Below the pieces are notes generated by a model, which saw only the letters and a list, made by a program, of their open reading frames with translations, had not been told where the DNA came from and did no database searches. A stretch of 64,000 nt of DNA, taken from the IMG/VR virus record IMGVR_UViG_3300028558_000001, positions 32,001 through 96,000 of that record, one strand, 5' to 3'. The DNA comes from a virus. This document shows, one piece after another, positions 10,151-60,155 of this stretch. The translations under genes were made by a program, and so were the position numbers. Each line of letters begins with the position of its first letter. Positions within the stretch are counted from its first letter, which is position 1.

Positions 10151-10737
10151 ATGATTTGTTTTGCTTCTGCTGACTTTATTACCAAGTTCAATAAAAGAAA
10201 AGGAGTTAGGACATATTGTAATCCTTATTGTTATGATTGCAGAAACAATTGTTTCTCAATTGAAGGACCAAGCCTGTTCATGATCATTCATGATATTATT
10301 CTTTTTCTTGATGAAGAAAATAGGAATTATTCTTGTAGATCAGCACAATATGCTTTTGAAGATTTGATTGGTTTTAGGCTACATGCAAGTGAAAACAAAG
10401 TTATCTTGTATTGGCCTATGATACCGTTTTGTGAAGAAAAAAGAGGAGTATATAACTAGATATGTCAAACATGTATACTAAATCCGGTCAGTTAAGCGCC
10501 GCTGCTCTCAGGAAGGGCTATCAGCATAAAGCCGATGTAAATTATAAAGATCATAAGTTTTCAACAGTTCTTGAATTTGTTGATCACTATAATATGTATC
10601 GCGTCAGACTTGTTCAGAATGATTATAATAACCTTAATTCATGGCATTTTTATTCTGTAAGTGAAACTCGAAAACAGTTTGAAACCGTTTTGGAAGCAGT
10701 TGTTGATGCTGCTGAAAAAGAATATTTACTTGTATAA
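10151..10737 (+). other. Two hypothetical ORFs (~10151-10459, 10462-10737)
   Basis: RBS motifs; tandem arrangement. Confidence 0.6.
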
Positions 10738-10749
10738 TTGGAGTGAAAT

Positions 10750-11832
10750 ATGTTTAAGTTAATTTCTTCATATGCCAAAGCTGACTTCTTAGTTAATGAT
10801 GAATTAAAGTTATTTAGTAAGGGAAAGGACGCGGCAAGGGCTGCTGCCAATCTCCAACTCATCTATGCTATGAGCTATAAGGTTGCTCCTTATGTTAAGC
10901 CATCTAATGAATGGAAGGAACGTGAGCAAGAGAGATTAGATTCTGGTTATCATAAGAAGGTACTGCCAGAACTACAAAAGTATTGCTTACCAGAACATTT
11001 CGTCCATGTCTGTAAGAAGTCTCCTTCTCTCATTGCATATACTGCTAATGATTATAAGGGTGCGAATGACCTACAGACTCAATCCTCAATCTCTGGTTAT
11101 CTAGAGCGGTTTGCTCCATCTGTAAAAGCACAAGAAGTAGAAGTCCTACAAGAAGCACATGATACTGCTTTTGCTTTCACTGATTTAATGTGGGCAAAGA
11201 CTCCAGATGAAATCGTTGAGTGCTATACCAATTTCGATCCTGATACCAAGGGTGTGTCTGACTCCTGTATGAGGTATGAAAACTTTTACGATGAAGGTTT
11301 TGATGGAGATGATGAAGAAAGAGGATGGATCACTCAGGTTCATCCAGTCTATGTATATGGTGACTCTGATATTTCTATTGCCCATCTAAAGAATCTAGAT
11401 GGAAAGGTAGTGGCAAGGGCTGCTGTCTTTGAAAAGAAGAAAGTATATTCTCGCGTCTATGGCTCCAAGGAAACAACCAATAGGCTTCATCAAATTCTAA
11501 AGAAGAAGGGATATAACAAGTCTTCTGGATACTTTAGTGATGCTGGACTAACAGAGTCTTTATATGGTGCTATGCTTCCAGCTATTAAATGGGATACTAA
11601 GTGTAGGTATTATAGGGATCATTATAATTATAGGCATTCTGATGTTTATTATGTAATGCCATATATTGATGAAGAAGATATTGTTACCCTAGTTAAAGGA
11701 GAGACTGAGAAGGATGATTACTTCTTACTTGGTGATCAGTCAATCAAGATTGCTAAAGAAGGAAAGAAGTATTATCTACTAGGCGCTCAAAGTGCTGATG
11801 GAATTACTTCCTATCATGACTTCTCTAAGTGA
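10750..11832 (+). CDS. Paralogue B of 7384-8862, lacking the Zn-ribbon tail
   Basis: Shared EWK.REQ.RLDSG, PELQK.CLPEHFVHV, SCMRY, YSRVYG, VMPYIDE. Confidence 0.8.
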   Translation: MFKLISSYAKADFLVNDELKLFSKGKDAARAAANLQLIYAMSYKVAPYVKPSNEWKEREQERLDSGYHKKVLPELQKYCLPEHFVHVCKKSPSLIAYTANDYKGANDLQTQSSISGYLERFAPSVKAQEVEVLQEAHDTAFAFTDLMWAKTPDEIVECYTNFDPDTKGVSDSCMRYENFYDEGFDGDDEERGWITQVHPVYVYGDSDISIAHLKNLDGKVVARAAVFEKKKVYSRVYGSKETTNRLHQILKKKGYNKSSGYFSDAGLTESLYGAMLPAIKWDTKCRYYRDHYNYRHSDVYYVMPYIDEEDIVTLVKGETEKDDYFLLGDQSIKIAKEGKKYYLLGAQSADGITSYHDFSK

Positions 11833-11846
11833 CTTTCCTCATTGCA

Positions 11847-11930
11847 TTCGGAAAGAACTTCGTTGACTCTGTTCTAGTTATTTGCTATAAAACTTAGTAG
11901 GTGACTAGAAACAGTTACTATCTTTCTGAA
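11847..11930 (+). repeat. Long intergenic hairpin, copy 9 (embeds TTGACT-N17-TATAAA at 11863-11891)
   Basis: ttcggaaaga/tctttctgaa and ttctagttatttgcta/tagtaggtgactagaa with several G-U pairs. Confidence 0.7.
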
Positions 11931-11939
11931 GACATATGG

Positions 11940-11968
11940 ATTATAACAAGTTTTTAAAAGTGTGTCAA
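11940..11968 (-). promoter_or_regulatory. Perfect sigma70 promoter, antisense to the early region
   Basis: Reverse complement reads TTGACA-cacttttaaaaacttgt-TATAAT (N17, extended TG). Confidence 0.75.
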
Positions 11969-11996
11969 GTGTAAAAATCAATTATAGGAGAGAAAA

Positions 11997-12656
11997 ATGC
12001 TAGTAAAGTGTATTGATGTTGGAGATTTTCCTTCGGTACTTACTAAAGGTATGGTATATGAAGCAGAGGATTATCTATACAACAAAAAGTGTTATATGAT
12101 TCGAAATGATAATGGAATGAACGCTCCATATTATAAGTCACGTTTTGAAGAAGTAGATGTTAAGGAAACTAAAGTGCAAGTAAAGTGTATTAAAGTTGAA
12201 GAGTGGGGAACCCATCTTACTCATGGGAAAGTATATACTGCAACCATTGATGGTAAATATTATAAAATTACTAATGACCTTGGTAGAGACAACGCCGGGT
12301 ATTCTAAAGACAGATTTGAAGTAGTGAAGGAGAATGAAATGAAGTTTGAAGTGGGAAAGATTTATGTTACTAATAATGCAACTAAGTATAAAGTTGTATG
12401 TATTGATAAACCCGGTAATGATCCAATTCTTGCCTACGATGTAAAAGAAGGCTATGTATATACCTTTGATAAGGATGGATACAACTATTATCGTGGGACA
12501 CTCAAGGCGTATATTGAACCCAAGAAGTGGTATACTTATGTTTATCTGAATGATAATGGAACTCCTTTTTCTGTTACTTCTGAAACTAGACCTACAGGAC
12601 CATATTATGATGATCGGAAGGTAATTCATACCTTTGAGTTTGAGCTAGGGGGATAA
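11997..12656 (+). CDS. Hypothetical protein: two SH3-like repeats plus a third domain
   Basis: VKCI..LTxGxVYxA..IxND.G..Y.K.RFE twice; internal aaggag RBS and in-frame ATG at 12339. Confidence 0.75.
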   Translation: MLVKCIDVGDFPSVLTKGMVYEAEDYLYNKKCYMIRNDNGMNAPYYKSRFEEVDVKETKVQVKCIKVEEWGTHLTHGKVYTATIDGKYYKITNDLGRDNAGYSKDRFEVVKENEMKFEVGKIYVTNNATKYKVVCIDKPGNDPILAYDVKEGYVYTFDKDGYNYYRGTLKAYIEPKKWYTYVYLNDNGTPFSVTSETRPTGPYYDDRKVIHTFEFELGG

Positions 12657-12704
12657 TCCTTCAAAAATAATTTGGGCCATAATCGCTTTTTTTGAAAATA
12701 AGTG

Positions 12705-12732
12705 TTGACGCGAAATTGGATTCATATATAGT
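12705..12732 (+). promoter_or_regulatory. sigma70-type promoter with UP-like A/T tracts
   Basis: TTGACG-N16-TATAGT. Confidence 0.55.
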
Positions 12733-12797
12733 GAGGACATGGGGAACGAGATACCCCTACGAAATTCTAGTCAAAACTAACTCAGGAGAAATTGATT

Positions 12798-13769
12798 ATG
12801 GCCCATGAAATTGAAAACCTTAACGGTAAAGACTGCTTCGTTTTCGCTGGTCAGCCCGCTTGGCATGGCCTTGGAACGGAAGTTCCTTCCGACCTTACGC
12901 CACTCGAAATGCTCAAGATTGCTGGTCTTGACTGGAATGTGCTTGAAGTGCCGGATACTTATGAATGGCATGGCAAGCAGATTCCGAATGGAAAGAAGTC
13001 TCTCATTCGTGACATTGACGGCAAGTTCCTTACGTCTGTTTCGGATGCATGGAAGCCCAATCAGAACATCGAAGCTTTCAAGTTCTTTAACGAATTTGTG
13101 GAAGCTGGCGATATGACGATGGAAACGGCTGGCTCTCTCAAGGAAGGCAAGCTTATTTGGGCGCTTGCGAAGGTGAAGGATACCTTTGAACTTTTCAATG
13201 GGGATACTGTTGAAAGCCATCTGCTTTTCTCCAATCCTCATGAATATGGCAAGAGCATCAATATTCGCTTCTGTGCTGAGCGTGTTGTTTGCGCTAACAC
13301 GATGGCGATTGCTCTTTCTGAAAAGGCCAAGAGCTTCATTCGCTTCTCTCATCGTCGTGAGTTTGATCCTGATCTTGCGAAAGAACTGCTTGGCATTTCT
13401 CACGAATATATGAACAAGTACAAGGAAGCGGCTGCTTTCATTGGTTCCAAGTTCTACACTCCCGATTCGGTCAAGGATTACATCACTGAATTGTTCCCTG
13501 TTGTTCAAGCTGCCAATGCCAACGGCAAGCCCCGCAAGGAAATCTCCAAGACTGCTCGCCAGATCATGGAAGAAGTGATTGACTCTCAGCCCGGACGTGA
13601 GTTTGCTCGCGGCACCTTCTGGAATGCTTTCAATGCGGTTACGTTCTACACCAACCATCTTGCTGGTCGGACTCAGGACAATCGCGTGAACTCCCTCTGG
13701 TTTGGTGAAGCTGCCAATATCAATATCAAGGCTCTTGATCTTGCTGTTGAGTATGCTAAAGCAGCGTAA
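12798..13769 (+). CDS. DUF932 family protein (phage/plasmid TIGR03299-like)
   Basis: MAHEIE..PAWHGLG..AGLDW.V..QN..AF.F..ETAGSL..G..R.VCANT..GT.W.AFNAVT.Y..H..WFG. Confidence 0.9.
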   Translation: MAHEIENLNGKDCFVFAGQPAWHGLGTEVPSDLTPLEMLKIAGLDWNVLEVPDTYEWHGKQIPNGKKSLIRDIDGKFLTSVSDAWKPNQNIEAFKFFNEFVEAGDMTMETAGSLKEGKLIWALAKVKDTFELFNGDTVESHLLFSNPHEYGKSINIRFCAERVVCANTMAIALSEKAKSFIRFSHRREFDPDLAKELLGISHEYMNKYKEAAAFIGSKFYTPDSVKDYITELFPVVQAANANGKPRKEISKTARQIMEEVIDSQPGREFARGTFWNAFNAVTFYTNHLAGRTQDNRVNSLWFGEAANINIKALDLAVEYAKAA

Positions 13770-58983: not shown

Positions 58984-59024
58984 GTCCTGCCAAGTAGAAA
59001 TATTTGGCAGGATTTGTCTTTTTT
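58984..59024 (+). terminator. Rho-independent terminator
   Basis: gtcctgccaagta-GAAA-tatttggcaggat followed by ttgtctttttt. Confidence 0.75.
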
Positions 59025-59026
59025 AC

Positions 59027-59055
59027 TTGACACGTTTTTTGGAACTTGGTATAAT
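59027..59055 (+). promoter_or_regulatory. Perfect sigma70 promoter upstream of primase
   Basis: TTGACA-N17-TATAAT with extended TG. Confidence 0.85.
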
Positions 59056-59135
59056 CCATATGTGTTCAGCAAGATAGTAATTGTTTTTGGTGACACTACA
59101 GGATCAACAGTTAGTAATAGGCGAAGTTAGGTATC

Positions 59136-60155
59136 ATGAATTATCTTGAATTGAAATATATGAATTTAGTTGCCTACAAGTTAAGGAACTATAAGCAACG
59201 ATCCAATAGACTCATTAACTTTTCATGTCCATATTGTGGAGATTCTTCTCATAAGAAGAATAGAGCTAGAGGATATATTCTAGAGAAGAATGGTTCTTCT
59301 GTATTCTATTGTCATAATTGTTCTGTTACAAAATCAGTAGAACAATTTATTAAATTTCTTGATGAAACAACATATCAAGAAATGATGATGGAAAAGTTTG
59401 AAGACACTAGAAAAGAAAAGAAAGATGAATATCAGGTTGACTTTTCGACGGTCAAGAGGACTTTTTCTAATAAGATATTAGGCGGAATGAAAAAGATTTC
59501 ACAACTGAAACATGATCATCCTGTCAAGAAATATATTGAATCAAGAATGATCCCAACTAATCTTCATTATAAGTTATATTACTGTCCAAAGTTCATGGCT
59601 TGGGTAAATTCGATCATTCCAGATAAGTTTTCAAAAGAAGCACTTGCCTATGATGAACCTAGACTCCTTATTCCTTTTTGGGACAAGGAGGGCAATATCC
59701 ATGCGTTTCAGGGAAGAAGTTTCAAGAGAAAGACCGATACCAAGTATATCACAATCGTCTTGGATGAATCAACGCCAAAATTATATGGGCTTGACACTCT
59801 GGACGAAAGGGCTAGAATCTACGTTCTTGAGGGTCCAATTGATTCTATGTTCATACCAAATGCCATAGCAACGGCTGGTGGAGATATGGTATCGGCAGTC
59901 TCAGGATTTGATAAAGAGAACCTTGTTATCGTATATGATAATGAACCACGTAGTATTGAAACTCATCATAAACTTGACAAAGCTATAGATAACGGGTATA
60001 ATGTTTGTATATTTCCAGATGCGGTCACTGAAAAAGATATTAATAAAATGCGCGAAGCTGGAAGAAGTTCGCCCGGTATTAAGTCAATAATTGATTACAA
60101 TATCTATTCTGGTTTAGAGGCCAAGCTAAGATTAGCCGAATGGTCCAAGAGATAA
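59136..60155 (+). CDS. 61: DNA primase
   Basis: CPYCGDS..CHNC Zn finger; FQGR; TOPRIM EGPIDS, YDNE, KDIN. Confidence 0.95.
   Translation: MNYLELKYMNLVAYKLRNYKQRSNRLINFSCPYCGDSSHKKNRARGYILEKNGSSVFYCHNCSVTKSVEQFIKFLDETTYQEMMMEKFEDTRKEKKDEYQVDFSTVKRTFSNKILGGMKKISQLKHDHPVKKYIESRMIPTNLHYKLYYCPKFMAWVNSIIPDKFSKEALAYDEPRLLIPFWDKEGNIHAFQGRSFKRKTDTKYITIVLDESTPKLYGLDTLDERARIYVLEGPIDSMFIPNAIATAGGDMVSAVSGFDKENLVIVYDNEPRSIETHHKLDKAIDNGYNVCIFPDAVTEKDINKMREAGRSSPGIKSIIDYNIYSGLEAKLRLAEWSKR

Follow-up and report, generated by a model that had tools for sequence, protein, structure and literature searches.

The stretch of DNA analyzed here (the window) comprises 64,000 nucleotides, bases 32001-96000 of the 176,660-bp virus record IMGVR_UViG_3300028558_000001, which carries terminal repeats. 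In this window, at about 11.9 kb, a 164-bp gap between a 360-amino-acid gene and a 219-amino-acid gene, both on the plus strand, is occupied by an element made of a perfect sigma-70-type promoter on the opposite strand, a conserved leader, a hairpin and a 39-nt block. The element is one of exactly four copies in the genome: one of them belongs to the primase gene (gene 61), and the other three serve no gene, point backward with respect to both flanking genes and share the 39-nt block. The reading tentatively favored here is that the 11.9-kb copy is an early counter-transcription cassette that would act in cis. The source of the window, judged by its gene content, is an uncultured T4-like phage; its primase resembles gp61 of Sinorhizobium phage phiM12 and of T4-like cyanophages (42-44% identity), and homologues of gp2, RNR, uvsY, uvsW, gp55 and gp47 are found among the neighboring genes of the genome.

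An earlier sequence-only reading had described a perfect antisense sigma-70 promoter at 11.9 kb and a plus-strand counterpart before the primase gene. The letters quoted for both were exact: the 11.9-kb promoter matches the consensus at 12/12 hexamer positions and has the TG of an extended -10, and the same architecture is present at 59027-59055. Transcription from the 11.9-kb promoter is predicted to start at about the G at 11933 (-). The pattern formed by TTGACA, 17 unspecified bases and TATAATCCATATG was found only at these two sites in the window, with an average of 0.05 matches in shuffled sequences and two matches in 0/100 shuffles. Aligned without gaps, the two copies agree at 23/29 positions (79%) of the promoter including the spacer and at 35/47 (74%) over the next 47 nt, and both then form a hairpin and reach CGAAGTT. 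The proposed homology was thus confirmed, and it extends somewhat further than the approximately 35 nt past the -10 given before. The hairpins have the same 5' arm, with CTGTT...AACAG at 11869-11914 (-) and TAATTGTT...AACAGTTA at 59078-59113 (+). Moreover, the spacer of the 11.9-kb promoter shares 79-86% of its bases with those at 59 kb and 153 kb, a sign of common descent and not of convergence.

The element had been taken for a pair of copies, an account that did not survive the searches of the whole genome. BLAST of the element, a scan for consensus promoters and an nhmmer profile, with filters off, all agreed on four copies, at genome positions 16970 (+), 43968 (-, window 11968), 91027 (+, window 59027) and 153221 (+), and the profile built from these four detected no further copy. 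The copies fall into two classes, the primase copy, which is in the sense orientation and has a gene, and the three gene-less backward copies that share the 39-nt block. In each of these three, a conserved, hairpin-bearing leader of about 65-75 nt stands between the promoter and the block. Approximately six perfect intergenic consensus promoters exist genome-wide, and three of them are the gene-less cassettes. Outside the four-copy family, the only two perfect intergenic TTGACA-N17-TATAAT promoters are at genome 1077 (-) and 138703 (-), both off the window; one stands before an ordinary gene and the other just upstream of a tRNA-Cys gene, in the transfer RNA (tRNA) region.

The comparison of the four copies revealed a strong contrast between positions that are kept and positions that are not. 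The 14 promoter-defining positions (TTGACA, TG and TATAAT) and the 17-nt spacing are intact in all four, whereas the neighboring sequence has diverged by 20-55%, and on this basis the 11.9-kb promoter is clearly under selection. In the promoter with its spacer, the flanking positions differ by 14-31%. For the adjacent leader, the differences amount to 19-26% among three of the copies, and to 49-62% for the 17-kb copy. The 39-nt block, which the primase copy lacks, varies among the three gene-less copies at one position only, the central base of its loop (C at 11.9 kb, T and A elsewhere), and is otherwise unchanged even in the 17-kb copy, the most diverged one. In two copies it lies exactly 100 nt from the first base of the -35, and in the third 110 nt. 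In the stretch that separates it from the conserved 5' leader, the identity between copies is only about 50%. With one base at its center free to vary and all others fixed, the block has the look of purifying selection and not of a recent copy. Moreover, the sequence fails to align between copies on either side of it, so that no homology would have been available for a conversion tract to begin in. Each copy also forms its hairpin on the same conserved 5' arm with a different 3' arm, which is weak evidence that the pairing of this arm matters. Most probably, the 39-nt module is recognized by its sequence, for example in processing, in pausing or in the binding of a protein.

These data bear on whether the 11.9-kb element could be the inert relic of an inverted duplication, as the lack of orthologues in any collection searched might suggest. 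This is very improbable, and the element is taken not to be such a relic, given that the promoter positions and the 39-nt block are intact in copies otherwise 20-55% diverged, and that the three gene-less copies share both placement and orientation.

The earlier statement that no gene lies downstream of the 11.9-kb promoter also held, as no credible minus-strand open reading frame (ORF) is present. Those near the promoter fail the codon-usage test (-0.03 to -0.34), whereas the plus-strand 360- and 219-amino-acid genes are backed by it (+0.27 each, against a known-gene mean of +0.29). A five-codon ORF (ATG...TAG) at the start site was discarded, having no ribosome-binding site and not being kept in the 17-kb copy, and so was a 66-amino-acid ORF that begins in the block of the 153-kb copy, being antisense within uvsW and negative in the codon-usage test. 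The three gene-less copies are all antisense to both of their flanking genes and lie in gaps between co-directional genes. The 17-kb copy has the same placement as the 11.9-kb copy, in this case between two minus-strand orphan genes, and the 153-kb copy, at a distance of about 1.5 kb from uvsY, has uvsW on one side and the gene of the late sigma factor gp55 on the other. At 11.9 kb, the ribosome-binding site (AGGAGA) and ATG of the 219-amino-acid gene lie within 29 nt beyond the opposite-strand -35, which leaves no room for a sigma-70 promoter of its own. Since at both the 11.9-kb and the 17-kb copies the downstream gene lacks a sigma-70 promoter between the cassette and its ribosome-binding site, these genes must be read through the cassette.

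The position of the 153-kb copy was then compared with that of related phages. An alignment query retrieved 80 gp55 loci (78 distinct; L106-L185, with gp55 on the plus strand at about 1501); a single-sequence query with gene 55 found none. A near-consensus antisense promoter, perfect in approximately 24 cases, was present within -220 to +45 of gp55 in 41/78 distinct loci. As a control, all co-directional gaps of 50-300 nt in the fetched loci were scored, counting a backward promoter at one mismatch or less. Backward promoters were found in 34/49 gp55 gaps, 0/29 primase gaps and 4/125 of all other gaps, and the corresponding numbers for sense promoters were 25/49, 21/29 and 8/125. The backward promoter of the relatives is predicted to fire into the 3' end of the upstream gene, and its start lies mostly 13-36 nt from the stop codon of that gene, so that the conserved trait is position and orientation and not a long RNA. 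Among cultured phages, a backward TTGACA-N17-TAGAAT precedes gp55 in Synechococcus phage S-RIM8 and a weaker backward promoter does so in P-SSM3; T4 lacks one. The 153-kb cassette thus stands, by this comparison of loci, at a site where a backward early promoter is a conserved trait of this T4-like branch.

The promoters in the gp55 gaps of the relatives have the same position and orientation as the 153-kb copy but, unlike it, are not followed by a conserved leader or a 39-nt block. No RNA alignable to the cassettes and no Rfam match was found at the gp55-site elements of the relatives, and the nhmmer profile gave nothing significant at their gp55 loci. The backward promoter is usually back-to-back with a gp55 sense promoter; L112 has two in tandem, 76 nt apart, and L087, L089 and L090 are also listed with one at this site. 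At the 153-kb cassette itself, a weak gp55 sense promoter, TTTAAA-N18-TACAAT (L086:4207-4236, genome 153207-153236, minus strand), overlaps the spacer of the backward promoter, and two overlapping promoters would compete for the same DNA.

According to the favored reading, host RNA polymerase would fire early in infection from the 11.9-kb promoter against the sense operon, giving a short untranslated counter-transcript of about 105 nt that reaches the stop codon of the upstream gene. It may run further, since the scan of 10700-12800 found no terminator-like site on either strand. Two routes in cis can be envisaged: the converging polymerases would interfere with each other, or the counter-transcript would pair with the sense intergenic RNA. 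By either route, read-through from the upstream to the downstream gene would be uncoupled or damped while the early promoters are active. Both the firing of the promoter and the action of its transcript are predictions drawn from the sequence.

The folding of the RNAs was also calculated. The counter-transcripts of the three gene-less copies fold no better than shuffled sequences (z -0.4, 0.0 and -0.8), and the gene-sense strand folds better at two of the three loci (z -5.0 at 11.9 kb and -1.7 at 153 kb). In the 11.9-kb gap, the minus-strand RNA reaches -17.7 kcal/mol (z -0.4) and the plus-strand RNA -32.3 kcal/mol (z -5.0); the plus-strand palindrome at 11869-11914 has a 14-bp upper stem with four G-U pairs, which become A-C mismatches on the promoter strand. 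The better folding of the sense strand fits a sense transcript that passes through the cassette. A covariance model (R1) built from seven of the two-tier junction hairpins of the phage (RNase III-like sites), which recovers known copies at 53-64 bits, gave nothing at 11830-11970 with E up to 10 and filters off, and the 11.9-kb hairpin was rejected as a member of that group, which it resembles in size only.

The constraint on the promoter, the antisense orientation of 3/3 gene-less copies, the conservation in the gp55 gap, the folding of the sense strand, the missing promoters of the downstream genes and the invariant block at a fixed distance are all in favor of counter-transcription in cis. 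Several points weigh against it. The promoters were called by their match to the sigma-70 consensus; no terminator follows the promoter to set the length of the RNA; and the antisense orientation of three out of three copies would arise by chance in 1 of 8 cases. Interference by itself would need no invariant 39-nt module. Finally, the backward promoters of the relatives share no alignable RNA, their function being equated with that of the cassettes by inference, and no cassette orthologue was found in the collections searched.

An alternative that is possible, if less probable, is that the cassettes encode trans-acting small RNAs or decoys. Each would be an independent RNA gene of about 105 nt, in which the 39-nt module binds a protein or pairs with a host or phage RNA; in a variant of this proposal, the 5' part, being the same as the primase leader, could compete with the primase mRNA for a leader-binding factor. 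The module, invariant save for one loop base in cassettes whose middles have diverged to about 50%, its fixed distance from the promoter, the share of the gene-less cassettes in the perfect intergenic promoters (three of about six) and the hairpin kept on one 5' arm with changing 3' arms would all suit an RNA gene. Against it, the predicted folds of the RNA are no more stable than shuffled ones, and there is no terminator. Rfam gave 0 matches at the gathering score in the whole window, with chance-level small nucleolar RNA and microRNA hits at E up to 10. When the 39-nt block was paired with all 282 translation-initiation regions, the best value was -25.3 kcal/mol, within the range of shuffled blocks (-20.8 to -26.3), and a search of the genome with the variable middle of the cassettes for guide-like matches gave nothing beyond chance. 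Moreover, an RNA gene that works in any orientation leaves the all-antisense arrangement unexplained. Among the alternatives raised by the sequence-only reading, that of noncoding RNA genes fits best, the 11.9-kb promoter being gene-less, antisense and under selection.

Cis-antisense RNAs and face-to-face promoters are known from other phages, such as OOP of lambda, sar of P22 and pR/pL of coliphage 186. For cyanophages, the cis-antisense RNA CfrI of S-PM2 is mentioned in PMC5931967 (Millard et al., 2010, as cited there). The 11.9-kb cassette resembles these systems in having a promoter opposite a transcribed unit and a short untranslated RNA as its predicted product, for which RNA pairing and polymerase collision are both possible. 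It differs from them in that the known ones are single-copy with a defined terminator, whereas here the element is present as three dispersed paralogues, which have a module in common but no terminator and lie between genes instead of over a particular coding region.

The relationship with primase, on which the sequence-only reading was centered, stands as homology but turned out to be secondary, as the 59-kb copy is simply the promoter of gene 61 and the 11.9-kb copy groups with the two other gene-less cassettes. After CGAAGTT, the primase copy diverges from the others into a ribosome-binding site and the ATG at 59136, without a second hairpin. In 62 primase loci of related viral contigs (from L005-L084, with primase at about 3001), a consensus or near-consensus sigma-70 promoter was found 7-55 nt before the gp61 start codon in 40, and the presence of a promoter at this site is therefore ancestral. 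The primase promoters of one subclade, including L098, have the same TATAATCC(A/G)T(A/T)TGT as this phage, and those of the relatives are often followed by a short palindrome. In the fragments compared, the promoter and leader of the relatives are single-copy. By all these features, the 59-kb copy is the usual early promoter of gene 61, as conserved among the relatives.

A dedicated antisense regulator of primase had also been suggested, in which the sense transcript of the 11.9-kb gap would silence or stabilize the primase mRNA. The complementarity on which it was based does exist, and the primase leader forms predicted duplexes of -60 and -58 kcal/mol with the sense RNAs of the 11.9-kb and 153-kb gaps, compared with about -30 for shuffled sequences. 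Such complementarity is automatic for any inverted duplicate and is missing from the 17-kb copy, whose sense RNA gives -30 kcal/mol, the same as shuffled; in addition, the primase leader contains nothing that corresponds to the 3' block, where the cassettes are most constrained. As nothing else supports it, this regulator is highly unlikely.

Transcription-primed replication origins were the other main proposal. In T4, oriF and oriG consist of a MotA-dependent middle promoter and an A+T-rich unwinding element, R-loop formation is sequence-independent, and oriE is reported to use an early promoter (Kreuzer and Brister, 2010, PMC3016281). Applied to the present phage, the promoter-made RNA would remain hybridized and prime the leading strand, and the gene-less cassettes, together with the backward promoter in the gp55 gap of about 70% of the relatives, would be the R-loop origins of the large T4-like branch that lacks MotA. 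In this branch, the backward promoter by uvsW and gp55 would correspond to ori(uvsY), and the 39-nt block would be a processing or primosome-loading signal. The cassettes resemble oriF and oriG as units of about 100 bp formed by a promoter and downstream sequence, several per genome; they are strong and gene-less, one lies near uvsY and beside uvsW, and the backward promoter at the gp55 site is widely conserved. They differ from these origins in having a sigma-70 early promoter that is not MotA-dependent, downstream DNA of average composition and a specific conserved 39-nt sequence, which sequence-independent R-loops leave unexplained. No copy has an A+T-rich unwinding element downstream, so that this feature gave the earlier idea no support: by this test of composition only, the first 100 bp are 64-70% AT, compared with a genome mean of 63% (21st-79th percentile). 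In the three gene-less copies, the windows +0 to +50 and +50 to +100 are both within 64-70% AT and rank at the 49th-79th percentile of the genome. The gene-less cassettes are also located away from the strand-switch points of the genome, and the fourth copy is plainly a promoter of the primase mRNA. Replication origins are regarded as improbable.

Also unlikely is an action at the DNA level, in which the blocks would be recombination substrates that shuffle orphan genes, as mobile cassettes of the promoter-early stem-loop (PeSL) kind, and the backward transcripts would be by-products. PeSLs are described in T4-type phages (Arbiol et al., 2010, PMC2839356; Comeau et al., 2014, PMC4122927). As with these, the modules found here are repeated, intergenic and built around a near-perfect sigma-70 early promoter in a T4-like genome, a feature of all four copies, and two of the cassettes lie among orphan genes without relatives. 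The full layout of upstream terminator stem-loop, early promoter, ribosome-binding site and gene is found in the primase copy alone. A PeSL is co-oriented with its gene, whose ribosome-binding site and start codon form its end (PMC4122927), whereas the three gene-less cassettes point backward and have neither of these signals; in them the hairpin follows the promoter, and the 39-nt block is present in addition. At 11.9 kb, the 29 nt that precede the promoter belong, on the opposite strand, to the ribosome-binding site of the next gene, with no stem-loop or terminator. Furthermore, there are only four copies, one of which (uvsW-gp55) is in the conserved core and not in a hyperplastic region, and the block with its one free loop base has the appearance of purifying selection. 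Terminal inverted repeats and target-site duplications were looked for at the ends of the cassettes and none was seen.

In favor of such DNA-level exchange, two contigs of another phage group, L097 (1416-1553) and L096 (9523-9640), have a perfect backward TTGACA-N14-TGg-TATAAT-CCATATGT before a tail-fiber or baseplate gene; they are alike upstream of the promoter and unrelated from about 20 nt past it, so that the promoter marks a breakpoint of recombination. These contigs came from a search with the promoter followed by CCATATGT, which matched seven metagenome and two viral stretches, none with the leader or the block. Five of the matches (L091, L096, L097 and L099, three or four contigs) are the backward promoter before a tail-fiber gene of that group, one is the primase promoter of a relative, and the remainder are unrelated bacterial promoters.

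If cassettes such as the 11.9-kb one do act, by timing or insulating late-transcription and recombination genes or by priming replication, they would constitute an unrecognized layer of control in a very abundant aquatic phage group. Three of the approximately six strongest intergenic early promoters of this phage serve no gene, and one of the three stands before gp55, where most relatives keep a backward promoter. We found no published description of the backward promoter at the gp55 site or of gene-less backward cassettes. The presence of the gp55-site promoter in cultured cyanophages such as S-RIM8 makes the question testable.

The features of the two regions of the window are compiled in Table 1. 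The plus-strand TTGACT-N17-TATAAA reported earlier as facing the 11.9-kb promoter does exist, but lacks the conserved last T of the -10 and is not kept in the paralogues: its TTGACT falls inside the invariant 3' block, and the other two gene-less copies have no -10 at that spacing.

Table 1. Features of the 11.9-kb cassette, the primase copy and their flanking genes, in window coordinates.
Feature	Position	Strand	Details
Upstream sense gene, 360 amino acids	10750..11832	+	no Pfam or PHROG family; no homologue in the viral contig collection; codon score +0.27
39-nt 3' block	11830..11868	-	AGTCAACGAAGTT-CTTTCC-GAATGnAATGA-GGAAAG-TCA; 6-bp stem CTTTCC/GGAAAG, 11-nt loop; final three bases lie opposite the TGA stop codon of the 360-amino-acid gene
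Facing TTGACT-N17-TATAAA	11863..11891	+	TTGACT 11863-11868, TATAAA 11886-11891; weak by consensus
Central hairpin	11869..11914	-	5' arm CTGTT(T)CTAGT in conserved sequence; apical part variable; closed by CTGTT...AACAG
Conserved 5' leader block	11887..11939	-	from the base after the -10 to about +47; 74% identical to the primase leader, 81% to the 153-kb copy
Perfect sigma-70-type promoter, extended -10	11940..11968	-	TTGACA 11963-11968; 17-nt spacer ending in TGt; TATAAT 11940-11945; 12/12 hexamer matches
Downstream sense gene, 219 amino acids	11997..12656	+	without Pfam or PHROG family; 5.8 billion proteins searched, none related; codon score +0.27
Intrinsic terminator of the gp2-like DNA-end-protector gene	58984..59023	+	13-bp stem and T run; directly precedes the primase promoter
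Primase (gene 61) early promoter	59027..59055	+	sense member of the family; predicted start about 59062
Primase leader	59056..59135	+	conserved 5' block; hairpin TAATTGTT (59078-59085)/AACAGTTA (59106-59113); CGAAGTT 59122-59128; then ribosome-binding site
gp61-type DNA primase gene, 339 amino acids	59136..60155	+	42-44% identical to annotated gp61 primases

The element was also searched for outside this genome, and no orthologue of the cassette was found by BLASTN or in the viral-contig and metagenome searches. BLASTN of the 400-bp region against 50,697 phage records gave no match, and neither did exact and degenerate patterns of the 3' block in viral or metagenome contigs; close relatives did not turn up either. 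Among the primase loci of the relatives, the nhmmer profile produced one weak match only, to the promoter region upstream of the L052 primase (E 2e-4). A mimic of a clustered regularly interspaced short palindromic repeat was considered for the block, whose core of 24 specified bases has no copy in the metagenome contigs and whose 11-nt hairpin loop is untypical. A derivation from the tRNAs of the phage itself was rejected, as 0/24 of its tRNA genes have a CTTTCC acceptor arm; in the window, no tRNA or transfer-messenger RNA gene was found. The 23-nt core of the block (CTTTCC, loop and GGAAAG) matched exactly at a single place when 596 billion bases of prokaryote genomes were searched, against approximately 0.07 matches expected by chance. 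This match is the 3' end of a tRNA-Ser(GCU) gene plus a 15-nt trailer in a metagenome-assembled Chlamydiaceae genome, CALNYX010000017.1 (L186:2100-2300); it could not be connected to the phage and may be due to chance. In that contig, 22 nt of the tRNA end are found again about 110 nt further downstream.

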